Below the pieces are notes generated by a model. It did not search any database, was not told the origin of the DNA, and was given only the letters and a program-made list of their open reading frames with translations. From Candidatus Micrarchaeota archaeon (lineage in GTDB: Archaea > Micrarchaeota > Micrarchaeia > Norongarragalinales > JBBILJ01): a stretch of DNA of 38,676 nucleotides. The stretch lies in NCBI GenBank assembly GCA_037444945.1, contig JBBILJ010000002.1, forward strand, positions 1-38,676. The letters run 5' to 3'. This document shows, piece by piece, positions 18,862 through 38,672 of this stretch. Numbering within the stretch: the stretch's first letter is position 1; each line of letters starts with the position of its first letter. The translations under genes were made by a program, and so were the position numbers.

Positions 18862-20331
18862 ATGGCGAACGCGGAAATCAAGCCCGGCTACCCGTTCTCG
18901 CAGTACACGCACCACGGTGAGCGCCTCAGCGAGCGCGACGAACGTCTCGCCGACCTTCTCGTTGACTTCTTTAACGGCCGCCTGACGGCGCGCCAATTCG
19001 CGTCCGAGGCCAGTGTGGGGGCGGACGCGGCTTCTGCTTTCGAGTCGTTCCGCGACGGCGTGGACTCGAGCCGTTTCGGGTTTCCCATTCCGCCCGCGGA
19101 GCTCGAATCGTTCCGCGAAAAGCTCGGGGTGTTTCTCAAAGGGTTTTTTGGCGCCTCGGCTTCGCGTTTGGCGGAACGCGTCGTGGGCCGCCTGCATGAG
19201 TTGCGCGTTCTGCAGCCGCTCTTCGATGACGACGAGCTCGAGGAAATCATGGTGAACGGCGTCGCGCGTCCCGTGTTCGTTTTTCACCGCACGGCCGGGG
19301 TTTGCGAAACGAATTTCGCGTTCAAGTCCGACAAGGAGATCCGCGATTTTCTCTCCCAAATCGGCGTCTCGTCGAACCGCCCCTTCGACGATGCGCGCCT
19401 CCCCGACGGCACGCGCGTGAACGCCGTTTTTCCGCCCGTATGCGAGGAGCCCGTCATCACGGTTCGCAAGTTCCGCCGCAAGCCGTTCTCGATTCTGGAC
19501 CTCATTCATAACCACACTGTGACGAGCGAGCTCGCCGCTTTCTTGTGGATGTGTATTGACGGCTACAACCTCTATCCTGCGAACGTCCTCATCGTGGGCG
19601 GCACGGCAAGCGGGAAAACCACGCTTCTCAACGCGCTCTCCACCTTCATTCCGCCCAGCGACCGCGTCGTCACCATCGAGGACACACGCGAGCTCGACTT
19701 GTACGGCAAGCAGGACTGGGTGCCGCTCGAGTCCGCGCCGAACGCGACGCTGCAGGATCTGGTGCGCAACTCGCTTCGCATGCGGCCCGACCGCATCATC
19801 GTCGGGGAAATTAGAGGCGCGGAAGCCGAAGCCATGTTCAGCGCGCTCAACGTAGGGCACCGCGGGAGTTTGGGGACACTGCACGCGAACTCGGACCGTG
19901 ACGCGATTTCCAAGCTCGAAAACCAGCCCATGATGGTGCCGCGCAGTCTTATCCCGCTTGTCGACGTCATCATCGTGCTGCACCGCCTCTACGATCGTCG
20001 CTTCGGCCTCGTGCGGCGCGTGCTGCAAGTGAGTGAAGTGTCCCGCATTGAGGACGTCGTCGCGCTCAACGAGTTGTATAAGCGGGACCCCCTCGATGAC
20101 TCGCTCAAGCGCTCCCCGCTGCCCTCGCAGGTGCGCGAAAAAATCGCGCACGGCTCGGGTCTCGAAATCGCGGCCGTCCAGGCGGACCTGAAAAAGCGCG
20201 AAGAAATCCTTAACTACTTATTGCAAAAGGGCGTCACGGAGCAGCACCACGTGCAAGAGTTCCTGCGCGGGTACTATGAGCACCGCCTTCAAGCCGACGA
20301 GAAAGCCCGCAGCTCGGTGGGCGAAAAATAA
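18862..20331 (+). CDS. Type II/IV secretion-family ATPase (archaeal type IV filament assembly ATPase, FlaI/PilB/TadA-like), orphan copy
   Basis: Walker A VGGTASGKTTLLNAL, Asp box VVTIEDTRELDL, Walker B RMRPDRIIVGEIRGAEA and His box GHRGSLGTLHANS. No platform or pilin gene is adjacent. Confidence 0.9.
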   Translation: MANAEIKPGYPFSQYTHHGERLSERDERLADLLVDFFNGRLTARQFASEASVGADAASAFESFRDGVDSSRFGFPIPPAELESFREKLGVFLKGFFGASASRLAERVVGRLHELRVLQPLFDDDELEEIMVNGVARPVFVFHRTAGVCETNFAFKSDKEIRDFLSQIGVSSNRPFDDARLPDGTRVNAVFPPVCEEPVITVRKFRRKPFSILDLIHNHTVTSELAAFLWMCIDGYNLYPANVLIVGGTASGKTTLLNALSTFIPPSDRVVTIEDTRELDLYGKQDWVPLESAPNATLQDLVRNSLRMRPDRIIVGEIRGAEAEAMFSALNVGHRGSLGTLHANSDRDAISKLENQPMMVPRSLIPLVDVIIVLHRLYDRRFGLVRRVLQVSEVSRIEDVVALNELYKRDPLDDSLKRSPLPSQVREKIAHGSGLEIAAVQADLKKREEILNYLLQKGVTEQHHVQEFLRGYYEHRLQADEKARSSVGEK

Positions 20332-28090: not shown

Positions 28091-29437
28091 ATGGTTTACT
28101 CGCCGCGCCTTGAGCGCGTTTTTGTTGCCGCCCGCGTGCAGCCCGGCGATGTCGTTCGCGTCACCTTGAACGGCGCCTCGTTTGAAGGCGTCCTGCTTCC
28201 CCACTCCTCACTCGAGCCCTCTGACGCGCTCGTCCTCAAACTCAAGAGCGGGTATAACGTCGGCTTGGCGTGGAAGGACGGCGGCGTCCTCGAAGGCACG
28301 GGGGGCCGCGTGGCGCTTTCAAAGTTTCCTGAACTCGCCCCCACCACTAAAGGGCTGCTCAAAGTGGTGCTGGTCGCGACGGGCGGCACCATTGCTTCGC
28401 GTGTGGATTACCGCACGGGTGGCGTCCATATGCTGCTCAAGCCCGAGGAACTTCTCGCGACAGTGCCCGAGCTTGCCGATCTCGTGGACCTTAAAATTGT
28501 GGCTCCTTTCGCCCTCGCCAGCGAAGACCTAGGCCCGATCGAGTGGGGGCGAATCGCTAAAGCGGTTGCCGATGAGTTGAATGCGGGCGCTTCTGGCGCC
28601 ATCGTGACACACGGCACGGACACTCTTGCGTACAGCGCGGCCGCGCTTTCATTTATGCTGCGTGATTTGGGCAAGCCCGTCGCGCTCGTGGGTGCGCAAC
28701 GCTCTGCGGACCGCGGCAGCTTTGATGGCGCCCTCAACTTGTTGTGCGGTGCGCGCTACGCGTCATCGGCGTACGCGGGCGTCGCCGTCGTGATGCATGC
28801 TTCCAACTCGGATGATTACTGCCACGCGATTCGCGGCACCAAGGCGCGCAAACTGCACACGAGCGCGCGCAGCGCGTTCCACTCCATCAACGCCCCGCCG
28901 CTTCTCAACATTTGGCCGGACGGCAAAATCGAGGAAGTTTCCAACAGCGGCGCGCAACTGCTTAAGCGCAACGACGCTCTCCTGACTCGCCCCCAAACCG
29001 CGTTCGAACAAAAAGTCGCGCTCGTCAAAGTTTATCCCGGCATGGATCCAGCCGTCATTGATTACTATACCTCGCAAGGCTATCGCGGTCTGGTGTTGGA
29101 AGCCTTCGCGCTCGGCCACGTCCCCACGCAGACGCTCGACCCCGCGGCCTCCCTCATCCCAGCGGTGAAGCGCGCGGTGGACGCGGGCGTGTTCGTTTGC
29201 GTTGCGTCCCAATCCATCCACGGCGCCGTGAACCCGTTCGTGTACTCGAACTTGCGCCGCCTCGCCGCCACGGGCGCCGTTTTCTGCCGCGATATGCTCG
29301 CCGAAACCGCGCTGGTGAAGCTCGGCTGGGTGCTCGCCCGCGCGCGCACTCGCGAAGAAGCCAAAACGCTTTTCCTTGACAACCTCGCTGGCGAGTACTC
29401 GGAGCGCCTCCTCGAAAGCACCACGCAGAACGATTGA
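28091..29437 (+). CDS. gatD: Glutamyl-tRNA(Gln) amidotransferase subunit D
   Basis: Asparaginase-type motifs VVLVATGGTIASRVDYRTGG and VTHGTDTLAYSAA. It is followed directly by gatE. Confidence 0.93.
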   Translation: MVYSPRLERVFVAARVQPGDVVRVTLNGASFEGVLLPHSSLEPSDALVLKLKSGYNVGLAWKDGGVLEGTGGRVALSKFPELAPTTKGLLKVVLVATGGTIASRVDYRTGGVHMLLKPEELLATVPELADLVDLKIVAPFALASEDLGPIEWGRIAKAVADELNAGASGAIVTHGTDTLAYSAAALSFMLRDLGKPVALVGAQRSADRGSFDGALNLLCGARYASSAYAGVAVVMHASNSDDYCHAIRGTKARKLHTSARSAFHSINAPPLLNIWPDGKIEEVSNSGAQLLKRNDALLTRPQTAFEQKVALVKVYPGMDPAVIDYYTSQGYRGLVLEAFALGHVPTQTLDPAASLIPAVKRAVDAGVFVCVASQSIHGAVNPFVYSNLRRLAATGAVFCRDMLAETALVKLGWVLARARTREEAKTLFLDNLAGEYSERLLESTTQND

Positions 29438-29442
29438 ACGCC

Positions 29443-31380
29443 ATGACTTCTCCTCTCAACCCCGCTTCTTCCGCGCGCTCTCCCTCGCCACTCCCCGCGA
29501 TTGATTACGCGGCTCTGGGTTTCCGCTGCGGCCTCGAAATCCACCAGCGCGTGGACTCCACGAAACTCTTCTGCAATTGTTACGCGAACCCGAGCGCATC
29601 GAGCAGCGGGGCGGAGGACAAAATCGACGAGACGAACTGCCTCGTGCTTCGCCGCCAGTTGCGCGCCGTCGCGGGCGAAACCGGGCAAGTCGACGTGGCG
29701 GCCGGCTTTCAAACCCGAGTCCAGCGCACCTTCACATACTTCGTCCCCGAAGGCAAAGCGTGCGCCGTCGAGTGCGACGACGAGCCACCCCACGCCCTCA
29801 ACGCGCAAGCCCTCGATGTCGCGCTCCAAACCGCTCTCGCGCTGCACTGCCGCGTGGTGGACGAGCTACACGTGATGCGTAAAACCGTGGTGGACGGCTC
29901 CGCCGTCAGCGGCTTTCAACGCACCGCCCTACTCGGTCTCGACGGCTCCCTCGACACCCCGCGCGGCCCCGTCGCAATCCCCACCCTTTGCCTCGAGGAG
30001 GAAAGCGCGGGCATCGTTGAGGACGTGCCGGACGCGTTCCGCCTCGACCGCATCGGCATTCCCCTGATTGAAATCGCGACGGACGCTTCAATTCGCGACG
30101 GCGGGCACGCGCGCCAAGTCGCTGAACAAATCGGCGCCGTGCTGCGCAGCACGGGCCGCGTTCAACGCGGCCTTGGAAGTGTGCGTCAAGACCTCAATGT
30201 CTCCATCACGGGTGGGGCGCGCGTCGAAATCAAGGGCGCTCAAGACCTCGACGCCGTGCCGCTCCTCATCGAGAACGAGGTGCGCCGCCAACTCGTTTTG
30301 CTCGCAGTGCGCGACGAGCTCCGCCGCCGCAACCCCCCGCTCGCCGCCGTGGAGGCGCGCGACGCGACGCACCTCTTTGCTGGCACCAAGAGCGCCCTCC
30401 TCTCCAAAGCGCTGGCGCGCGGCGAGCGCGCTTTCGCCCTCAAACTCCCGGGTTTGCGCGGATTGCTGGGTCGCGAACTCCTCCCGGGTTTGCGTTTCGG
30501 CAGCGAGCTCGCCGCTTACGCACGCGCCGCCGCTGGCGTGAAGGGTCTGATTCATAGTGACGAAGACCCCGTCAAGTACGGCCTTGGGCGTGACGAAATC
30601 GCGGCCCTCGAAAAATTCCTTGGCGCCGCGGCCCCGAACGCGAGCGTGCCCGCTGGCGATGGGTGGCTTCTCGTCGCCGCGCGCGAACCCGTCGCACGCA
30701 AAGCACTGACGGCTGCCGCCGAGCGCTGCAACCGCGCTCGCGAGGGTGTGCCGGAGGAAACCCGTCGCGCCGAGGGAACATTGAGCGTCTTTATGCGTCC
30801 TCTGCCGGGTGCGGCGCGCCTCTATCCGGAAACCGATGTGCCCCCCGTTTCGCTTGCCGCGCTGCGTGGCTCCGTCAAGCCCCCTGAATCCATGGCGGAG
30901 AAGCGCGCCAAGTATCTCGCGTGGGGTGTCGGGGACGCGCTCGCTGATCAACTTCTCCGATCGCCGGTGTTCCCGCGCTTCGAGCGCCTCGTCGAGGCGG
31001 GCGCGAGCGCGCCCCTCGCCGCTGCTTTGCTCCTCGAAACTTTGGTGAGCTTGCGCCGCGATGGCGTTCCCGTCGACGCCCTTCCCGACGCCGTGCTCTC
31101 CACCAGTCTCTCCCTTGTGCGGTCGGGGCGGTTGGCGCGCGGGGCCCTTCCTGAACTTCTCCAACTCTGCGCGCAACGCCCTGGCGAGGAGCCGGGTGAG
31201 CTCGCTGCCGCGAACAACCTTGAGCGCGTGACGGGCTCGGCGCTGCGCGCTCTCGTGCAGTCTTATCGCGAGAAGGGTTTGATTGGCGCCGCGCTCGTGC
31301 AAGCCGTGATGCGGGAGCATCGTTTGCGAGTGGATGCGAGTGAAGTCGCCGCGCTTGCCGCTGCGCGCGAGCGCCCTTAA
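29443..31380 (+). CDS. gatE: Glutamyl-tRNA(Gln) amidotransferase subunit E
   Basis: DYAALGFRCGLEIHQRVDSTKLFCNC and the GatB/E core. I took ATG 29443; a TTG at 29434, overlapping the gatD TGA, is the alternative start given in the ORF track. Confidence 0.92.
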   Translation: MTSPLNPASSARSPSPLPAIDYAALGFRCGLEIHQRVDSTKLFCNCYANPSASSSGAEDKIDETNCLVLRRQLRAVAGETGQVDVAAGFQTRVQRTFTYFVPEGKACAVECDDEPPHALNAQALDVALQTALALHCRVVDELHVMRKTVVDGSAVSGFQRTALLGLDGSLDTPRGPVAIPTLCLEEESAGIVEDVPDAFRLDRIGIPLIEIATDASIRDGGHARQVAEQIGAVLRSTGRVQRGLGSVRQDLNVSITGGARVEIKGAQDLDAVPLLIENEVRRQLVLLAVRDELRRRNPPLAAVEARDATHLFAGTKSALLSKALARGERAFALKLPGLRGLLGRELLPGLRFGSELAAYARAAAGVKGLIHSDEDPVKYGLGRDEIAALEKFLGAAAPNASVPAGDGWLLVAAREPVARKALTAAAERCNRAREGVPEETRRAEGTLSVFMRPLPGAARLYPETDVPPVSLAALRGSVKPPESMAEKRAKYLAWGVGDALADQLLRSPVFPRFERLVEAGASAPLAAALLLETLVSLRRDGVPVDALPDAVLSTSLSLVRSGRLARGALPELLQLCAQRPGEEPGELAAANNLERVTGSALRALVQSYREKGLIGAALVQAVMREHRLRVDASEVAALAAARERP

Positions 31381-31449
31381 ATATGTTTATATTGCGCGCC
31401 GCCCTTGGGAGCGCTTGGAGCGCCTCGGGGGCGCCTCGCGGTGTATTTC

Positions 31450-32472
31450 ATGCCGGATGACGAAGAATTTTTGCTTGAAGGACAGCCGTCGCCGCTTTCG
31501 CGCGTCACGGACTTCGTCAAGTCGCACCTTGGCTTCATCGCAGTCCTCCTCGTCCTCATAGTTGTTGTGTGGGTGTACCTTAACGTCCTGCCGCACTCGA
31601 CGACGCTCAAAGTCAACGTGTCCGAGTTGGACGGCAATGCTGTGGACGCGGACGTGACGGTGAGCGCAAACGGGAAAGTCCTCAAAAGCGGCACGACCGA
31701 TGGCGGCTTTATCGCGTTCACCGGCATCCCGACGCGCACGGAACTTCAAATCGATGTGGACCCGTCCGCGTACTCCTCGGTCCTCAAAAAAGCGACTCAC
31801 ACGCTTACCCTTAATTCCGATGAGGGCGGTTCCGCGTCCATTGATCTCGAGCGCGCGTATTCTTCCGGCCTCGAGCTCGGTGAAGTGACGCCCGCAGCGG
31901 GTCTCATTGGTGAGGGCTGTGCCCCGACCTTCCAGCTTCCGGTCACGAACAAGAATACGAACGCCGTCACGCTCGAGCTCGCTTCGAATAGTCCCGACGC
32001 CTTCTCGTCTTCGGACTCGCAGACCCTCGCGGCTGGTGAAACGAAGTCTCTTTCCTTCACCATTACGCCGCCTACAACGGCCTCTAAGTCGTCCTCGTTC
32101 TCGGTGGCGGTGCGTGTTAAACACACCAACCAGAAGAAAGACCTCTCCTTCACGGTCGGCGACCCCGCTAAGCTTTCCCTTAGCCCCTCCGAAATCCACT
32201 GCCCCGACTCGGGCTGCACGAAAGCCGTCACCATCACGCTCACCAACAGCGGCAAGTCCCCCATCACGGACATCGTGGCGCAACTCATCGGGGAATTTCA
32301 ATCCGGCGATATTACATTCACGTCATACAATGAAGGTCAGCACATCACGCTCGGCCCCGACGAGAAATACACGTTCTTCGTCAAAGTGACGTCCAGCGCG
32401 AAAGGTAAAGTCGGAAAACTCCGCGTCACGAGCAGTTGCCCGCCCCCCCTTGAAATCGCCATTACTCCCTAA
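31450..32472 (+). CDS. N-terminally membrane-anchored extracellular beta-sandwich protein, first gene of the pilus locus
   Basis: I set the start at ATG 31450 (MPDDEEF); the track's TTG at 31405 is too close to the TTTATATT element at 31386-31393. One TM helix (FIAVLLVLIVVVWVYL). Then a carboxypeptidase-regulatory-like module (TLKVNVSELDGNAVDADVTVSANGKVLKSGTTDGGFIAFTGIP). Then two Ig/CARDB-like modules. Confidence 0.6.
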   Translation: MPDDEEFLLEGQPSPLSRVTDFVKSHLGFIAVLLVLIVVVWVYLNVLPHSTTLKVNVSELDGNAVDADVTVSANGKVLKSGTTDGGFIAFTGIPTRTELQIDVDPSAYSSVLKKATHTLTLNSDEGGSASIDLERAYSSGLELGEVTPAAGLIGEGCAPTFQLPVTNKNTNAVTLELASNSPDAFSSSDSQTLAAGETKSLSFTITPPTTASKSSSFSVAVRVKHTNQKKDLSFTVGDPAKLSLSPSEIHCPDSGCTKAVTITLTNSGKSPITDIVAQLIGEFQSGDITFTSYNEGQHITLGPDEKYTFFVKVTSSAKGKVGKLRVTSSCPPPLEIAITP

Positions 32473-32493: not shown

Positions 32494-32534
32494 TTTTTTG
32501 CGCCCTTGCCCGCGTTCTCCTCCAGCTTTTTTTT
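32494..32534 (+). terminator. Two oligo-T tracts (T6 at 32494-32499, T8 at 32527-32534)
   Basis: Both are located in the 150-nt spacer after the 32472 stop and before the TATA element of the ATPase gene. Confidence 0.4.
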
Positions 32535-32584
32535 CGGGCTCTCCCTCGCCATCTTTGCCGCTTTTTGCGCGCTGGCGCGTTCGC

Positions 32585-32592
32585 TTTTTATA
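32585..32592 (+). promoter_or_regulatory. TATA-box-like TTTTTATA
   Basis: It lies 31 nt upstream of ATG 32623 (MASYLDSL), which supports the internal start rather than the track's 32506 start. Confidence 0.5.
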
Positions 32593-32622
32593 CTCTCCTT
32601 CCCTGCCTTTGAACGATTCGCC

Positions 32623-34356
32623 ATGGCGTCCTACCTCGATTCCCTCGTCAAGAAAGCCAAGGCCTCGAAGAGCACGACGCCTGCCGCGTCACCCGCTGTG
32701 CGCGTGACCGAAGGCGAAAAACCATCGAGGGGTCCCAAGCCCAGCGCGGCCGCGTCACCCGCCGTCGAAGCACCCGCGTCTGCTCTCGCATCAATCGCCA
32801 TCGTTTCTCCCATTCCCCCGGCTCCTTCGGTGGCTGCTCCCGGCGCTCTTGCATTCGGCGCGCCGCAACCTCGCCGGCAAACGCCTCGCGGCGAGGACGA
32901 GGAGGAGCCGGCGAATCGCGTCCTCGTCGAATCGTACGGGTCCGCGAAGATTTACCGCGTGCCCGGCGAGCCGCTTTTCTGGTACGACGTCCCCGCCATT
33001 CATTACCGTGGTGACGAGAAGGCGCTTATCGACGCCCTCGTCGAAATCGCGAGCAAAGTCATCACGTTCGAGGAGCCGTACGCGACGCCGGAGCAGAAGC
33101 GCGACGCGTTCTTCAAGCAACTCCTTGAAATCATCGACGCGACCCCGGAGTTGCGCGTGCCACCGAACGCGCGTGAGTTTTACGCTCGCGCTGTCGTGCA
33201 GGAAATGGTGGGTTTCGGCCAACTCGACCCCCTCCTCGAAGACGACCACCTCGAAGAAATCATGGTGCTCGGACCCAACCGCCCCACCTACGTGTTCCAC
33301 CGCAAGTATGAAATGATGCGAACCAACGTCGTGTTCTACGATGACGTCGATATCCGCGACCTCATCGACCGCATCGCGCGCGACGTGGGTCGCCGCATCG
33401 ACTTCGCCAGCCCGCTGCTCGACGCGCGCTTGCCGGACGGCACGCGTGTGAACGCTACCATCCCGCCCGCCTCCATCGACGGCTCCACGCTTACCATCCG
33501 CAAGTTCCGCACCGACCCCTTCACCGTCGTCGACCTAATGGACCTCGGCACCCTCAACTCGGAAGTCGCTGCGTTCCTCTGGCTCGCCACGGACGGCCTC
33601 GGCGCGCGCCCCGCCAACATTCTCGTCTCCGGCGGCACTGCCTCGGGTAAAACCTCGACGCTCAACATGTTGTGCTCTTTCGTTCCCGCCAACGAGCGCG
33701 TCATTACGGCAGAAGACGTCGCCGAACTCGCTCTCCCGCTGCCGCACTGGATCCGCCTTGAAACCCGCCCACCCGGCATCGAGGGCAGTGGCGAAATCGA
33801 CCTCAACACGCTGGTGAAAAACATTCTCCATATGCGGCCAGACCGCATCATTGTTGGTGAAATCCGAGCCGAGGAAGGCTTTACGCTCTTTAGCGCCATG
33901 AACACGGGGCACATGGGGAGCATGGGGACCGTGCACGCGAACTCGGCGCGTGAAACGCTTATCCGCCTCGCGAATCCCCCCATCAGCGTGCCTGAAATCA
34001 TGTTGGACTCTCTCAACTTCATCGTGATGCAGCAGCGCGTCAACGACCGCCGCAAAGGCCTCATCCGCCGCATCACTGAAATCGCGGAAATCGTCCCAAC
34101 CGAAAGCGGCATTCCCAGCCTGCAAGTCCTCTACAACTGGGACGCCGCCACCGACACCCTCACCGCCACGGGCGTCCCCTCCGCCTACCTACAAACCCTC
34201 TCCCGCTTCACCGGCCTCTCGAAAGAACTCATCCAGCAGGAAATCGACGCTCGCCGCAAAGTCCTCGAAGAAATGCAGCACAACGGCATCCGCAGCATTG
34301 AGAGCGTCACCGAAATCACGCAGAAATACATCCTCCGCCAAAAAGGCCGCATCTAA
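32623..34356 (+). CDS. Type IV filament assembly ATPase (T2SSE family; TadA/EpdL/FlaI-like) with an Ala/Pro-rich N-terminal extension
   Basis: Walker A SGGTASGKTSTLNML, Asp box VITAEDVAELAL, Walker B HMRPDRIIVGEIRAEEG and His box GHMGSMGTVHANS. The first approximately 100 aa are low complexity (TTPAASPAVR...PKPSAAASPAVEAPASA...PPAPSVAAPG). Confidence 0.92.
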   Translation: MASYLDSLVKKAKASKSTTPAASPAVRVTEGEKPSRGPKPSAAASPAVEAPASALASIAIVSPIPPAPSVAAPGALAFGAPQPRRQTPRGEDEEEPANRVLVESYGSAKIYRVPGEPLFWYDVPAIHYRGDEKALIDALVEIASKVITFEEPYATPEQKRDAFFKQLLEIIDATPELRVPPNAREFYARAVVQEMVGFGQLDPLLEDDHLEEIMVLGPNRPTYVFHRKYEMMRTNVVFYDDVDIRDLIDRIARDVGRRIDFASPLLDARLPDGTRVNATIPPASIDGSTLTIRKFRTDPFTVVDLMDLGTLNSEVAAFLWLATDGLGARPANILVSGGTASGKTSTLNMLCSFVPANERVITAEDVAELALPLPHWIRLETRPPGIEGSGEIDLNTLVKNILHMRPDRIIVGEIRAEEGFTLFSAMNTGHMGSMGTVHANSARETLIRLANPPISVPEIMLDSLNFIVMQQRVNDRRKGLIRRITEIAEIVPTESGIPSLQVLYNWDAATDTLTATGVPSAYLQTLSRFTGLSKELIQQEIDARRKVLEEMQHNGIRSIESVTEITQKYILRQKGRI

Positions 34357-34426: not shown

Positions 34427-35533
34427 ATGCCTGCCGAAAAACCGCTCGAAAAAATCAAAGCCGAAATCATGGGCGGCAAGGAGGAGGAAGAGCTCGAAGA
34501 GCGACGCGTCGGCAAAGTCGTCGACCGCCTCAAAAAAGAGCGCACCTCCGAACGCGAAACAAAGGAGCGCTCCGTCGCGCAGATGCGCGAACAACTCGTC
34601 GGCGCCGTGAAACGCGCCCGCCTCAACTTCGGCCGCGTGAGTGGTGACCTCGCCAAACGCGACGACCTCACCTTCATCGGGCGCTTCTACACGACCTTCG
34701 AGCGACCCGTCTCCACCCTCGCTGGCTTGCTCTTCACGCTTCCCGCCGCCGAAAACCTGCAAATCGATCTCGACTCCGCCGACATCCGTCTGAGCGTGGA
34801 GGCGTACCTTGTCGTCGCCGCCTCCTTTGCCGTCCTCCTCGCCGCCATCGTGTTCTTCGGCGTGGGCCTGCTCGGCATCCTCCTCGGCGACGCCAACTTC
34901 GCCTTCGTTGCGCCCGCTTTCGCGATCGCCATCTTCGTTATTGCCATCATTGTCGGCCTACTCTATCCCGGCTTGCGCGCGAACGAGCGCGCCATGAAAA
35001 TCAACCGCGACCTCCCCCTCGCGCTCCGCCAACTCTCCACCCAAATCCGCGCCGGCGTCTCCTTCAACAAGGCGCTGCAAAGCATCGCGAACGCCAAGTA
35101 CGGCGTCCTCTCGCAGGAAATCCAGCGCGTCGTCACCGACATGGAGGCCGGCGAGAGCACGGAAGACGCCCTCGCGCGCCTCGTGCGCCGCACGCGCAGC
35201 AAGGGCCTTAAGCGCGCTCTCGTGCAGCTCGTGCGCGCCCTCCGCACCGGCGGCCGCCTCTCCGACGTCGTGAACGCGATCGCGGAAGACGTCTCGTTCG
35301 AGACACGCATGGCGGTGCGCGACTTCACGGAAATCCTCAACCTCATCTCCGTCATCTACATCGTAGTCGCCGTCGTTGCACCCGTCACGCTCACCATTAT
35401 TTCCGCCATCGTGCAGCTCCCCATGCTCGGCGGCACCGTCCCCAAAATCATTATCTACTTCGCCTTCGCCGCCATTGCAGTCGGCATCGGCAGCATCATC
35501 TTCATCACGCAACGCCTCGAACCCTCCACGTAA
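34427..35533 (+). CDS. Type IV filament platform protein, single T2SSF domain (TadB-like half)
   Basis: A charged N-terminal region, then TM helices, then one T2SSF cytoplasmic domain (DLPLALRQLSTQIRAGVSFNKALQSIANAKYGVLSQEIQRVVTDMEAGESTEDAL...LVRALRTGGRLSDVVNAIAED), then C-terminal TM helices. Confidence 0.8.
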   Translation: MPAEKPLEKIKAEIMGGKEEEELEERRVGKVVDRLKKERTSERETKERSVAQMREQLVGAVKRARLNFGRVSGDLAKRDDLTFIGRFYTTFERPVSTLAGLLFTLPAAENLQIDLDSADIRLSVEAYLVVAASFAVLLAAIVFFGVGLLGILLGDANFAFVAPAFAIAIFVIAIIVGLLYPGLRANERAMKINRDLPLALRQLSTQIRAGVSFNKALQSIANAKYGVLSQEIQRVVTDMEAGESTEDALARLVRRTRSKGLKRALVQLVRALRTGGRLSDVVNAIAEDVSFETRMAVRDFTEILNLISVIYIVVAVVAPVTLTIISAIVQLPMLGGTVPKIIIYFAFAAIAVGIGSIIFITQRLEPST

Positions 35534-35561: not shown

Positions 35562-36509
35562 ATGGCGAACCAAAAAACCCCCTCCAACAAGTTCCAAGCC
35601 TACCTCCTCGAGCGGTACGACGAGCTCGAGCACTTCGTCGCTTCCACTGGCCTTCACGTCCCCCTCCCAGTCTTCATCATTTCCATGTTCTTGATCGGCG
35701 TTCTCGTCGCCTATGTCGTGTTCGCCGTCCTCAACCTCTCTTCCATTCTCTCCCTCGTCGCCTTCATCTCGGTAATGAGCCTCGTGCTCGGCATCCCGCT
35801 GACGCTGCGCAACGCGCGCATCGACGCCATCGAAAGCAACCTCCCCGACGCCCTCAAGCACATGGCGAGCGTGCTGACTTCGGGCGGCACCCTGGTGAGT
35901 GCTCTCGAAGAAACGGCGACCTCCGACTACGGTCCCCTCTCCGCCGACTTGCGGGAAGCCCTCAAGGAGCTCCGCGAGGGCCGCACCTTTGACGAGGTCC
36001 TCCTCGACGCGTCCCGCAACTCCGGCTCGCTGCTCTTCGAGCGCGTCACTTACATCGTGGTGGACGCGCGCCGCGCGGGCGCCGCCCTCGCCGACGTCCT
36101 CGTCGCCATCGCGGAAGACACGCGCGAAGTGTTGCGCATTAAACGCGAGCGCCTCTCCCGCACCACGATGCACACGGCCTTCCTCATCCTTAGTTCGATT
36201 TTCCTTGCTCCGTTCATTTTCGGCTTCACGCTCAGTGTCGTGGACTTTATTGGTACGGGCATGTCGCAAGCCCTGGGCCTCATCGGGCAAGCTGTTGCGC
36301 CCGACCCGAACCGCCTTTCCCTCGACGAAATGAACGGCCTCCTCACGGTCTTCATCGCCGTCGAAGTCGTCCTTACTTCTCTTGCGCTCGGCGTGATTCG
36401 CGAAGGAAAAACCCTTAAATACCTCCTCTATATCCCGTTTATGATTCTCCTCGCCCTCATCATTTTCGAGGGCGGCAAGTGGCTCGCTCACCTCCTCGTC
36501 AACGCGTAA
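35562..36509 (+). CDS. Type IV filament platform protein, single T2SSF domain (TadC-like half)
   Basis: An N-terminal TM pair, then a T2SSF domain (NLPDALKHMASVLTSGGTLVSALEETATSDYGPLSADLREALKELREGRTFDEVL...ARRAGAALADVLVAIAEDTRE), then C-terminal TM helices. Confidence 0.8.
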   Translation: MANQKTPSNKFQAYLLERYDELEHFVASTGLHVPLPVFIISMFLIGVLVAYVVFAVLNLSSILSLVAFISVMSLVLGIPLTLRNARIDAIESNLPDALKHMASVLTSGGTLVSALEETATSDYGPLSADLREALKELREGRTFDEVLLDASRNSGSLLFERVTYIVVDARRAGAALADVLVAIAEDTREVLRIKRERLSRTTMHTAFLILSSIFLAPFIFGFTLSVVDFIGTGMSQALGLIGQAVAPDPNRLSLDEMNGLLTVFIAVEVVLTSLALGVIREGKTLKYLLYIPFMILLALIIFEGGKWLAHLLVNA

Positions 36510-36578
36510 AAAAACGGTACCCCGCTCTAACCCAAACTTCCTTGCTCGAACTTTCCGCAAAACCCCGTGAATCCCTCC

Positions 36579-36707
36579 ATGCCGGTTCCCGTTTCCACTT
36601 CCCGCGCCCAGACTAGCGTGGAGTATCTTCTCCTTATCGCGGCTGTCGTCGTCATCGTCGCCATCATCGCGTACTTCGTGAAAGTCAAAATTCTCAGCGG
36701 TGGCTGA
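36579..36707 (+). CDS. Mini-pilin A (42 aa), class III signal peptide, Flp-like
   Basis: Hand translation gives MPVPVSTSRA|QTSVEYLLLIAAVVVIVAIIAYFVKVKILSGG, with TGA at 36705-36707. It has Q+1, E+5 and Y+6 followed by a hydrophobic helix. An in-frame GTG at 36567 is an alternative start. This ORF is not in the track (below 60 aa). Confidence 0.6.
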   Translation: MPVPVSTSRAQTSVEYLLLIAAVVVIVAIIAYFVKVKILSGG

Positions 36708-36724
36708 AAACCAGGTATTCCCTT

Positions 36725-36985
36725 ATGCCTATCTTCCTCGGCGCCCTCGCGAATTCCCTTGCCCCCCTCGCCCGCTTTCTTCGCGGTTTCCTCAATCGCT
36801 CCTTCGTTCCCGCTCCCTTGCGTCCCCGCCGCGGGCAGACCGCCACGGAGTACCTCCTCCTCATCGGCGCCGTTATTGTGTTCGTGCTCGTCGTCGTCGC
36901 TATCGTGCGCACCTACATTATCGGCCCGAGTCTGAATGAGAGCGCGAACCTCACCAACCTTTACCACAACCTCACGACGATTTAA
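36725..36985 (+). CDS. Pilin B (86 aa as tracked), class III signal peptide with an unusually long leader
   Basis: ...PLRPRRG|QTATEYLLLIGAVIVFVLVVVAIV, followed by the tail NESANLTNLYHNLTTI. AGGTAT lies 6 nt before ATG 36725. An in-frame TTG at 36818 would give a 6-aa leader (MRPRRG). Confidence 0.65.
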   Translation: MPIFLGALANSLAPLARFLRGFLNRSFVPAPLRPRRGQTATEYLLLIGAVIVFVLVVVAIVRTYIIGPSLNESANLTNLYHNLTTI

Positions 36986-36999
36986 CCCCGACTCCGGGC

Positions 37000-37008
37000 A
37001 TATAATAA
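37000..37008 (+). promoter_or_regulatory. TATA-box-like ATATAATAA, internal promoter candidate for pilin C
   Basis: It lies 70 nt upstream of GTG 37078. The TATA-like elements before pilins G and H have the same 66-70 nt spacing. Confidence 0.4.
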
Positions 37009-37077
37009 GCCTTTTAACCCCGCCCCGCGTCAATTCCCCGTTTACAAACCCGCTTTCCGATTCCTGGTGATTTTGAA

Positions 37078-37293
37078 GTGACGAGTGTTTTCGGCGACGA
37101 CAAAGGTCAAGGCTCCTTCGAGTACATCCTACTCGTCGGCGGCGCCATCCTCTTCGTTCTCATCGTGATTGCGATTTTGCGCTCTGGCTTCTTCACGCCC
37201 GCCGCCAACCAGACGAATCAGAGTACGACCGCGTACTACAATTACCTTAACGAAACGCGAGGCCAATTCACGGGTAACCGGTCGTTCCCTTGA
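37078..37293 (+). CDS. Pilin C (71 aa), class III signal peptide
   Basis: The GTG start lies 6 nt after GGTGAT (37066-37071). Sequence: MTSVFGDDKG|QGSFEYILLVGGAILFVLIVIAIL. The tail carries NQT, NQS, NET and NRS sequons. Confidence 0.75.
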   Translation: MTSVFGDDKGQGSFEYILLVGGAILFVLIVIAILRSGFFTPAANQTNQSTTAYYNYLNETRGQFTGNRSFP

Positions 37294-37361
37294 GGCGCAC
37301 CCCCCCCAAAAAAATCGGAGTCAAAACAGAACCACGCTTTTCAGAAACGGAGTGATTGACT

Positions 37362-37535
37362 ATGGATGAACGCGGCCAAGGCTCCTTCGAGTACATTCTT
37401 CTCCTTGCAGGAGTCCTCCTTATCGTCGTCCTTATCATCATCATGCTACATAACATCTCGCTCGCGCAAGCTGGCGCGCAAATCAACAACACGCTTTCCG
37501 TGTGGGCGAAACAAACCAACGCCTCCAACATCTAA
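37362..37535 (+). CDS. Pilin D (57 aa), class III signal peptide
   Basis: Hand translation gives MDERG|QGSFEYILLLAGVLLIVVLIIIMLHNISLAQAGAQINNTLSVWAKQTNASNI, with TAA at 37533-37535. GGAGTGAT lies 5 nt upstream. This ORF is not in the track, which shows only an out-of-frame ORF at 37366. Confidence 0.75.
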   Translation: MDERGQGSFEYILLLAGVLLIVVLIIIMLHNISLAQAGAQINNTLSVWAKQTNASNI

Positions 37536-37586
37536 CAATGAGTGTGACGGCGGAGTTTTGACGCTAAAATCTTCGGTGATATCTAC

Positions 37587-37742
37587 ATGGTTGAACGGGG
37601 TCAGGGAGCGTTGGAGTATTTGTTGTTGATTGGTGGCGCGATTTTGCGTGTCGGGCCGTTCGGCGCCGGCAAGGCTGCCCTCACCAATGGTGGCGGGAAC
37701 TACACGAACGCCGTGAACTTCTCAAACACGACGGTCTACTAA
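37587..37742 (+). CDS. Pilin E (51 aa), a mosaic paralog with its hydrophobic helix shortened by 9 residues; possibly non-functional
   Basis: Hand translation gives MVERG|QGALEYLLLIGGAILRVGPFGAGKAALTNGGGNYTNAVNFSNTTVY, with TAA at 37740-37742. GGTGAT lies 6 nt upstream. Relative to pilin G it lacks 27 nt encoding LVLIVLAIL. Confidence 0.5.
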   Translation: MVERGQGALEYLLLIGGAILRVGPFGAGKAALTNGGGNYTNAVNFSNTTVY

Positions 37743-37743
37743 G
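37689..37743 (+). repeat. 55-nt block identical to 38159-38213 (3' ends of pilins E and G, including the stop)
   Basis: ggtggcgggaactacacgaacgccgtgaacttctcaaacacgacggtctactaag is found at both positions on direct reading. Confidence 0.85.
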
Positions 37744-37913
37744 TGGATCAACGCGCTCAGGTGAGCACAGAGTATTTGCTCTTGCTCAGCCTGGGTCTCG
37801 TTGTCGCCATCGTGGCGGTCGGCCTCGCCCTCCAAATTCAAAACTTGGCGAACGTCGTCATGACGCGCATTTCGAGCGAGCGCAATGAAACCCTCGCCAT
37901 GCTTACTCAGTAA
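37743..37913 (+). CDS. Pilin F (56 aa), class III signal peptide
   Basis: GTG follows immediately after the pilin E stop. Sequence: MDQRA|QVSTEYLLLLSLGLVVAIVAVGLALQIQNLANVVMTRISSERNETLAMLTQ, with TAA at 37911-37913. Not in the track. Confidence 0.7.
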   Translation: MDQRAQVSTEYLLLLSLGLVVAIVAVGLALQIQNLANVVMTRISSERNETLAMLTQ

Positions 37914-37923
37914 AAAGCCCGTT

Positions 37924-37958
37924 CGGGGGCGTAAACGGCCCCCGACCCCGTCTTTTTT
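37924..37958 (+). terminator. Hairpin plus oligo-T terminator closing the ATPase-to-pilin-F unit
   Basis: CGGGGGC (37924-37930), loop gtaaacg, GCCCCCG (37938-37944), then tcTTTTTT (37951-37958). Confidence 0.55.
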
Positions 37959-37961
37959 AAA
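37953..37961 (+). promoter_or_regulatory. TATA-box-like TTTTTTAAA upstream of pilin G
   Basis: It lies 69 nt upstream of ATG 38030 and overlaps the preceding terminator T-tract. Confidence 0.45.
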
Positions 37962-38028
37962 CCTCTTTTTCCTCCCTCCTCACCGAGAGAATCCGAGCGG
38001 TGTTTGCTCGTTCTTCGGTGATACCAAC

Positions 38029-38069
38029 TATGGATGAACGTGGTCAGGGAGCGTTGGAGTATTTGTTGA
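38029..38069 (+). repeat. 41-nt block identical to 38411-38451 (5' ends of pilins G and H)
   Basis: tatggatgaacgtggtcagggagcgttggagtatttgttg is found at both positions. Confidence 0.85.
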
Positions 38070-38212
38070 TAATCGGCGGAGCAATCTTGCTCGTGCTGAT
38101 TGTGCTCGCGATTTTGCGTGTCGGGCCCTTCGGCGCCGGAAAGGCCGCTCTCATCAGCGGTGGCGGGAACTACACGAACGCCGTGAACTTCTCAAACACG
38201 ACGGTCTACTAA
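38030..38212 (+). CDS. Pilin G (60 aa), class III signal peptide
   Basis: I set the start at the ATG that lies 7 nt after GGTGAT (38017-38022). Sequence: MDERG|QGALEYLLIIGGAILLVLIVLAILRVGPFGAGKAALISGGGNYTNAVNFSNTTVY. Confidence 0.8.
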   Translation: MDERGQGALEYLLIIGGAILLVLIVLAILRVGPFGAGKAALISGGGNYTNAVNFSNTTVY

Positions 38213-38338
38213 GCGCGTTAAAGCGTTTTTGGAGACGCTCCTCATTCGGCTTGGGCGTTCGTTTTTCGCCCTCGCTTTCTTCCTTCTTTTTCCTCTTTCC
38301 TTCTCCGTCTTTTTGGGCGCGAGGACGTTGACCTTTCA

Positions 38339-38346
38339 TTTTTAAA
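38339..38346 (+). promoter_or_regulatory. TATA-box-like TTTTTAAA upstream of pilin H
   Basis: It lies 66 nt upstream of ATG 38412. It is preceded by an approximately 100-nt pyrimidine-rich stretch containing several T5 tracts (38226-38320) that probably terminates pilin G transcription. Confidence 0.45.
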
Positions 38347-38411
38347 GCTCGCCCCTCCTTTTCCGTTTACCGGGTTCGAACGGTCCTCGCCCGCCCGCTA
38401 GTGATACCCTT

Positions 38412-38594
38412 ATGGATGAACGTGGTCAGGGAGCGTTGGAGTATTTGTTGTTGATTGGCGGCGCGATTTTGCTCGTGCTCATCGTGCTCGTCGTCATTCG
38501 CGCGGGTCCGTTCGGCAACGCGGAGTCGAAACTCGGCGAGGGCGGGGCCGCTTACGTGAACGCGACCAACTACGGCAACATTGCTGGGCACTGA
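38412..38594 (+). CDS. Pilin H (60 aa), class III signal peptide
   Basis: MDERG|QGALEYLLLIGGAILLVLIVLVVIRAGPFGNAESKLGEGGAAYVNATNYGNIAGH. AGTGAT lies 6 nt upstream. Confidence 0.8.
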   Translation: MDERGQGALEYLLLIGGAILLVLIVLVVIRAGPFGNAESKLGEGGAAYVNATNYGNIAGH

Positions 38595-38647
38595 CGCGTC
38601 GCGCTCGCCATTCCTACCTTTTTTAATACAACTTCCTAGGCCGTGAA

Positions 38648-38672
38648 ATCCCAAGCTCTTCAGGCTTGGGAT
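38648..38672. other. Perfect 9-bp hairpin at the window edge (ATCCCAAGC-tcttcag-GCTTGGGAT)
   Basis: The inverted repeat was read directly. It is preceded by the TATA-like TTTTTTAATA at 38619-38628. It may be the 5' end of a transcript or RNA gene that is cut by the window. Confidence 0.3.

Follow-up and report, generated by a model that had tools for sequence, protein, structure and literature searches.

A tandem array of mini-pilin genes in Micrarchaeota, probably encoding the subunits of an Epd-like type IV filament

What is encoded by eight tandem genes of only 42 to 86 aa near the end of a contig from Candidatus Micrarchaeota archaeon (JBBILJ010000002.1, assembly GCA_037444945.1)? The window, that is, the whole stretch of DNA analyzed here, has 38,676 nt, and the genes, named A to H, lie on its forward strand between 36579 and 38594 (Table 1). 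An earlier note on this DNA had described them as mini-pilin genes. We conclude, with a probability of about 85%, that this region is an array of genes for the subunits of an Epd-like ("system 1", Tad-like) archaeal type IV filament in Micrarchaeota, which belong to the DPANN archaea. The core of this reading is that the genes code for mini-proteins resembling type IV pilins, with a class III signal peptide that is cut before a glutamine at position +1 (Q+1). It is well supported by family models, by an adjoining ATPase and two platform genes, by synteny over about 90 DPANN loci and by purifying selection.

The eight open reading frames (ORFs) were confirmed at the coordinates proposed before. 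All of them match PF04021, the Pfam family for the class III signal peptide of archaeal EppA-type prepilins, and six (A, C, D, E, G and H) exceed its gathering score of 23.7 bits, with values from 25.4 to 35.9 bits. A non-circular hidden Markov model (HMM), built only from 104 pilin N-termini of related loci in DPANN relatives, gave the eight ORFs 33.5 to 47.0 bits, compared with 3.9 bits for the next-best ORF in all six frames of the window; the best score among 30 shuffled windows was 5.3 bits. The array is thus real and far beyond chance. No other ORF with a class III signal peptide was detected elsewhere in the window by this model.

The shared residues Q+1, E+5 and Y+6, pointed out in the earlier note, are invariant in an alignment of all eight proteins, and L+8 is invariant as well. 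The leaders fall into the classes described there. They show the PF04021 arrangement of a short charged leader ending in Gly or Ala, followed by Q+1 and E+5, and they are 5 to 10 aa long in seven of the eight proteins. Pilin B is the exception, with 37 aa if counted from its ATG or 6 aa from a downstream TTG; the long form is doubtful, because B-type genes of relatives with an evident ATG have short leaders (for example MKA, MDDKG and MKKS). After cleavage the eight proteins would range from 32 to 61 aa. E+5 is followed by 19 to 20 uncharged residues in seven proteins (A, B, C, D, F, G and H) and by only 10 in E, so that the hydrophobic helix of about 20 residues is found in all but E. The AlphaFold2 (AF2) model of G is all helix and is confident over residues 3-31, with predicted local distance difference test (pLDDT) values of 88-93 at residues 11-30 and a low-confidence tail. 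GGTGAT or AGTGAT occurs 5-7 nt before the starts of C, D, E, G and H, which we take to be a match to the archaeal anti-Shine-Dalgarno sequence.

Other readings of the same DNA were also considered. The rival frame at 37366-37629 (+) was rejected, having no Pfam match. Three antisense ORFs (36527-37033, 37268-37531 and 38367-38654) were rejected as genes, having no Pfam match either. An identity as archaellins was rejected since archaellins are much larger and archaellum genes are not present, and an identity as bacteriocin-type leader peptides was rejected for the wrong motif and the wrong context. The genes shorter than 60 aa had been called invisible; this is correct for an ORF track with a 60-aa cutoff, but the public collection already contains all eight exact proteins, in an NCBI record with the same starts.

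A total of 91 related loci (referred to below by L numbers) were scanned with the pilin HMMs. The order recovered from about 90 of them is GatE, sometimes an Ig-like protein, ATPase, platform B, platform C, A-type pilin, middle pilins, F-type pilin and A24 prepilin peptidase. The A-type pilin stands first in the array, has almost always about 30 aa in its mature form and carries the pattern QT.IEY...AYFIKT..., which was found in 44 other loci. After it stand one to three middle pilins, whose tails vary. The F-type pilin is the last, with a mature length of 50-52 aa in 25 of 25 arrays and its pattern in 37 other loci. Median pairwise ratios of nonsynonymous to synonymous substitution rates (dN/dS) of 0.16 for the A-type and 0.10 for the F-type denote purifying selection. 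The earlier note had made its case depend on the expression of the sub-60-aa ORFs and on their conservation in related genomes, and A-type and F-type genes are indeed conserved coding genes by these counts and ratios. The gene after the F-type was Peptidase_A24 in the eight relatives tested, with Arc_PepC in six of the eight, and beyond it lie class III proteins that are larger and match only weakly, together with a TctA-like membrane protein. Relatives have one to five pilins per array, compared with eight in the window.

The genes upstream of the array place it in a known type of system. An ATPase, two contiguous platform genes with a single T2SSF domain each, and short pilins without a globular domain define the Epd-like or system 1 architecture, the presumed source of the bacterial Tad pilus (PMC6668835, PMC13705601). 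The window has two single-T2SSF platform genes beside a T2SSE ATPase, together with short pilins without a C-terminal globular domain. In relatives, platform protein 1 is kept directly 3' of the ATPase and platform protein 2 directly 5' of the pilin array. The best NCBIfam models for the ATPase are FlaI and TadA, both below their cut-offs. Its identity to DPANN homologues is 46-67%, while the nearest non-DPANN proteins are bacterial Tad-type ATPases with 34-45%. Almost all proteins related to the ATPase or to platform protein 2 come from Micrarchaeota and Iainarchaeota (DPANN) assemblies. System 1 pilins have been reported in 1,990 DPANN genomes (PMC13705601).

Table 1. Coordinates and properties of the features of the pilus locus in the window. 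HMM, model built from relatives only; sequon, N-x-S/T.
Feature	Coordinates	Strand	Length and start	Leader	Mature protein	PF04021 (bits)	HMM (bits)	Remarks
Membrane-anchored Ig-like/beta-sandwich protein	31405..32472	+	355 aa					head of locus; weak Pfam matches to FixG_C and NPCBM_assoc Ig-like folds
Type IV filament assembly ATPase (T2SSE, FlaI/TadA-like)	32506..34356	+	616 aa					PF00437, 157.8 bits
Platform protein 1 (TadB-like half platform)	34427..35533	+	368 aa					one T2SSF domain, PF00482, 83.8 bits, one stretch
Platform protein 2 (TadC-like half platform)	35562..36509	+	315 aa					one T2SSF domain, PF00482, 61.3 bits, one stretch
Pilin A	36579..36707	+	42 aa	MPVPVSTSRA	32 aa, helix only, no sequon	35.9	43.4	first gene after platform genes; A-type orthologue
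Pilin B	36725..36985	+	86 aa from ATG 36725 or 55 aa from TTG 36818	37 aa (ATG) or MRPRRG (TTG)	49 aa, 3 sequons	19.0 (21.0 from TTG start), both below gathering score	40.6	
Pilin C	37078..37293	+	71 aa, GTG	MTSVFGDDKG	61 aa, 4 sequons	27.7	47.0	GGTGAT 6 nt 5' of start
Pilin D	37362..37535	+	57 aa	MDERG	52 aa, 3 sequons	32.1	44.2	GAGTGAT 5 nt 5' of start
Pilin E	37587..37742	+	51 aa			25.4		mosaic, H-like 5' part and G-like 3' part joined at GCGATTTTG (37638)
Pilin F	37743..37913	+	56 aa, GTG	MDQRA	51 aa	18.0, below gathering score	36.6	F-type orthologue
Hairpin ccgttcgggggcgtaaacgg then TCTTTTTTAAAC	37919..37962	+						terminator-like T-run after F, TATA-like box about 70 nt before G; read from sequence
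Pilin G	38030..38212	+	60 aa	MDERG	55 aa, 3 sequons	26.3	43.8	GGTGAT 7 nt 5' of start
TATA-like box ATTTTTAAAG	38338..38348	+						about 65 nt before H; read from sequence
Pilin H	38412..38594	+	60 aa	MDERG	55 aa, 1 sequon	27.8	45.1	AGTGAT 6 nt 5' of start

Across the tails of pilins B to H, 217 residues in all, there are 18 N-x-S/T sequons, a density of 8.3 per 100 aa; for 17 large proteins of the window it is 0.35 per 100 aa. In relatives the mean number of sequons is 1.34 for middle-type pilins, 0.21 for the first type and 0.28 for the last type. The major pilin of Methanococcus maripaludis, MMP1685 (74 aa, 62 aa mature), is an N-glycoprotein (PMC3875500). Given the sequon density and the precedent of MMP1685, the surface tails are likely to be N-glycosylated here.

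Based on these features, the following mechanism is proposed. Each gene would encode a prepilin whose short, charged leader, with Gly or Ala as its last residue, would be cut off before Q+1 by an A24 class III signal peptidase. The hydrophobic helix of about 20 residues would anchor the subunit in the membrane, from which the ATPase and the two TadB/TadC-like half-platform proteins would extract subunits into a thin helix-bundle fibre. The short sequon-dense C-terminal tails would then form the fibre surface, probably in N-glycosylated form. The A-type and F-type pilins, which are single-copy, fixed in length and poor in sequons, may be conserved core or minor subunits, acting for example in initiation or in contact with the platform. 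Middle-type pilins (B, C, D, G and H), with variable number and fast-evolving tails, may form the bulk of the fibre or serve as alternative subunits. A minor or priming role of pilin A, as suggested in the earlier note, is just one option, since the A-type is the most syntenically conserved member of the array.

In the main rival explanation, the mature A-type protein of 30 to 32 aa is itself a true Flp-like, helix-only fibre subunit, and B to H are accessory, decorating or alternative. The A-type comes first after the platform genes in almost every sampled Micrarchaeota locus, its mature length is nearly fixed, and pilin A has the top PF04021 score among the eight. Moreover, it is the only pilin detected beside the motor in L008, L009, L028-L030, L067, L069 and L080, as well as in L025, where DnaJ follows directly after it. 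Nevertheless, a subunit of 30 aa would have almost no surface-forming part, and the variable copy number and fast-evolving, presumably glycosylated tails single out the middle type, by analogy with clade 1, as the major and exposed subunit (PMC4858521). The loci with an A-type only may also keep other pilins elsewhere, as the major pilin of M. maripaludis is encoded away from its motor (PMC3875500). We regard an A-type shaft as unlikely.

The closest described counterpart of this filament is the Epd pilus of M. maripaludis (system 1, Makarova clade 1; PMC3875500, PMC4858521, PMC13705601). Substrates of its dedicated A24 peptidase EppA have leaders of 5-13 aa ending in Gly, followed by Q+1 and E+5 (PMC3875500), and class III leaders with the same three features occur in the window. 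Both systems have several paralogous, very small major-type pilins without a globular domain, N-glycosylated in M. maripaludis, and both have two separate platform genes plus an ATPase. However, the window pilins share a locus with the motor, whereas the major pilin and motor of M. maripaludis are in separate loci; Y+6 is present in all eight window pilins and absent from those of M. maripaludis (PMC3875500); and some window subunits are much smaller, A having 32 aa when mature. The contig also has neither EpdA-C-like minor pilins of 130-156 aa nor a peptidase, which in relatives sit 3' of the F-type.

Bacterial Flp pilins of the Tad pilus (motif G/XXXXEY, with Q+1 in Gram-positive Flp) are similar too. 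They are helix-only subunits of similar or larger size, and their processing and core motif occurs as G\|QxxxEY in B, C, D, E, G and H, while A and F have A\|QxxxEY. The split TadB/TadC-like platform and the ATPase identity given above extend the likeness to the motor. The window differs in that its genome is archaeal, as indicated by GatD/GatE, in that the sequon-rich tails suggest archaeal N-glycosylation, and in that no secretin, TadZ or TadE/F genes were found around the array. None of the eight pilins matched Pfam Flp_Fap at E <= 1, the only related match being Flp1_like for G with E = 0.29. The window system thus works like Flp pilins but is not classed as Flp. A separate observation comes from L051 (13070-13234), an Eggerthellales Flp-like pilin with G\|QGTTEY and 42 aa in mature form, beside a Tad-type ATPase; it scores 22.8 bits with PF04021, just below the gathering score, and therefore illustrates how close the PF04021 and Flp families are.

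The Micrarchaeota isolate Mia14, 'Ca. Mancarchaeum acidiphilum', is also reported to have a clade 1 pilus locus (MIA14_0170-0177; PMC5498576). This locus comes from the same phylum, was assigned to the Methanococci/Methanothermobacteria/Thermococci (clade 1) group and was proposed as a host interface. Mini-pilin arrays are not described in that paper, in whose main text the word "pilin" is absent, and the two loci are compared by description only.

A second rival is that the eight proteins are class III substrates without an external fibre, forming a membrane-proximal pseudopilus, a bindosome-like structure or merely small membrane proteins. The subunits are extremely small and the organism is known here from its genes alone, and archaeal bindosome systems likewise combine class III signal peptides, an ATPase and a platform protein (PMC13705601). 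We consider this very unlikely, as neither a sugar-binding protein nor an ABC transporter was found in the locus, the two half-platforms and helix-only pilins fit the adhesive Epd and Tad pili (PMC6668835), and microscopy of ARMAN cells has revealed pili-like connections to their hosts (PMC5498576).

Several observations weigh against the Epd-like filament and are collected here. B and F, with 19.0 and 18.0 bits, are under the gathering score of PF04021. No prepilin peptidase (A24) was found on the contig, where the two platform genes are the only ORFs of 150-480 aa with at least four hydrophobic segments. No solved structure was matched by sequence or fold: a PDB sequence search with a profile of the eight pilins gave only chance transmembrane-helix matches (E >= 1.2), and the AF2 model of G, compared with PDB by Foldseek, gave no match, as would be expected of a helix-only model whose tail has low confidence. 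The Epd-like or system 1 assignment is one of gene architecture and not of ATPase or platform phylogeny. The division of roles among the pilins is a reading of conservation patterns only, and in some relatives the A-type is the sole pilin beside the motor. No RNA runs holding the region were found. Finally, the assembly depth is low (about 3-6x), and the sole run holding the region is probably the source sample. Two further searches were of little use: NCBIfam has no model for these pilins, its sole match being a weak one of TIGR04205 to A (16.7 bits), and a word-based homologue search with pilin A returned only the query, the method being too insensitive for 42 aa.

Are all eight genes working pilin genes? 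Pilin E is a mosaic. Its first 60 nt have 3 mismatches to H and 9 to G, and its last 105 nt have 7 mismatches to G and 49 to H. The joint is the 9-mer GCGATTTTG, found at nt 51 of H but at nt 78 of G; E has thereby lost 27 nt (9 aa) of helix-coding sequence. The E tail is close to that of G (dN 0.03, dS 0.24), and the recombination is therefore recent. E is thus a recent H/G recombinant for which membrane insertion and pilin processing are unlikely, because the hydrophobic segment is so short, and it is probably not a working pilin. The earlier count of eight pilins holds for ORFs with family matches, but the working ones are probably seven. Similar recombination scars were seen in relatives, where a truncated pilin N-terminus (RGQGTIEYVGRPGG...) stands in frame 5' of an intact RGQGTIEYVFMLGG pilin (L064:1740-2282, L072:7917-8936 and L073:10989-12008).

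At 37740-37745 the GTG start of F abuts the TAA stop of E, and F lacks its own Shine-Dalgarno sequence. F may depend on coupling to E for its translation, and this may be the main reason why the ORF of E persists.

A third rival takes E, G and H as partly an assembly artefact, with near-identical repeats misjoined in a low-coverage bin and a true copy number or order different from the one given here. Apart from the low depth, it would be favored by the identical blocks of 35-55 nt in E, G and H, by the stretch 37449-37594 left uncovered by Logan contigs, and by a loose end at 38412. There, a Logan contig (run X1) matches from the ATG of H on and has a different upstream sequence (...CGGTGATTACAAG), so that at least one further MDERG-type 5' block exists, off the contig or in a related strain. 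However, a Logan contig of 149 nt from the only run holding the region spans 37604-37752, across the E joint, without a gap, and E carries substitutions seen in neither G nor H; for these reasons E is no simple chimera of the assembly. G, the G-H spacer and H are covered contiguously by separate Logan contigs, without a letter of difference. All these contigs probably stem from the reads of the assembly itself and so give no independent support. We find an artefact extremely unlikely. Another Logan contig, of 847 nt, extends about 600 nt past the window end. Since the window is the whole contig, the array itself may run on past that end. A metagenome scan found no near-identical contig that would extend the window, the best match having 53-55% identity.

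G and H differ from the rest of the array in position, standing after F where relatives have the peptidase. Each is preceded by a T-run and a TTTTTAAA-like box, and the spacers are long (116 and 199 nt). The hairpin after F was also found by a scan, which reported it on the reverse strand, and a sigma-70 promoter scan found nothing, its model not being applicable to archaea. The claim that all eight paralogs form one operon is doubtful; judging from these elements, G and H look like separate transcription units added to an ancestral array. The two genes share an identical 5' block of 40 nt, and 18 of 30 tail residues differ between them. For this pair, dN/dS rises from 0.14 in the head to 0.40 in the tail, which means that the tails diverge fast, with no signal of positive selection (values not above 1). 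The heteropolymeric fibre and the antigenic or adhesive variation proposed in the earlier note may each account for the many paralogs.

Other genes of the contig and of its relatives deserve a short description. GatD/GatE (28091-31380) lie immediately upstream of the pilus locus, and they point to an archaeal genome and, together with the related loci, place the contig in Micrarchaeota. GatE also adjoins the pilus locus in many Micrarchaeota relatives, a conserved linkage between a translation-related operon and pilus genes. Homologues of the 355-aa Ig-like protein, with 26-33% identity, were found between GatE and the ATPase in L001, L032, L039 and L048, and this protein is possibly an accessory or anchor component. 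A second T2SSE ATPase is encoded at 18862-20331 (489 aa, PF00437, 134.1 bits), with no platform or pilin gene nearby.

The ATPase genes of L025 (9920-12802), L026, L028-L030, L034-L037, L042, L048 and L080 contain an intein with a LAGLIDADG homing endonuclease after the AMNTGH motif. The ATPase ORF of L025 has 960 aa, with Intein_splicing at 83.1 bits and LAGLIDADG_3 at 61.7 bits; the window ATPase has no intein. L019 (DAOWAC010000095.1) and L022 (JAFCCG010000023.1) are filed as metagenome-assembled genomes of Chloroflexota/Chloroflexi and carry a DPANN-type ATPase, with 53% and 46% identity, respectively. L022 also carries a full Iainarchaeota-like pilin array. Both contigs are probably mis-binned archaeal sequences.

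What, then, does the locus add? It belongs to an already described family, of which it is an expected member that stands out only by copy number. The eight copies and the recombinant E illustrate ordinary paralog turnover by duplication and gene conversion. A recent survey found DPANN pilins mostly scattered, and its models may miss pilins (PMC13705601). The ordered loci described here suggest that mini-pilins are what the survey missed, which would be a modest correction and not a new system. A bolder joint reading can be drawn: the A-type, a bare helix of about 30-32 aa, would truly be a filament subunit and, among known type IV pilins, the smallest, Micrarchaeota and Iainarchaeota pilins with the full G\|QxxxEY would be the closest archaeal relatives of Flp, DPANN-like system 1 would be the donor type of the bacterial Tad pilus, and the view of scattered genes would be corrected, having arisen perhaps from models that miss mini-pilins. 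Taken as a whole we find this rather unlikely and offer it tentatively.

The locus nevertheless bears on the relation of the bacterial Tad/Flp pilus to archaeal systems. Micrarchaeota are tiny and host-dependent, and a pilus is the leading candidate for contact with the host. The comparison with about 90 relatives yields an ordered parts list of ATPase, two half-platforms, A-type pilin, variable middle pilins, F-type pilin and peptidase, with subunits small enough to escape length filters and published pilin models. This list provides concrete targets for proteomics and cryo-electron microscopy (cryo-EM) in the few existing Micrarchaeota co-cultures.

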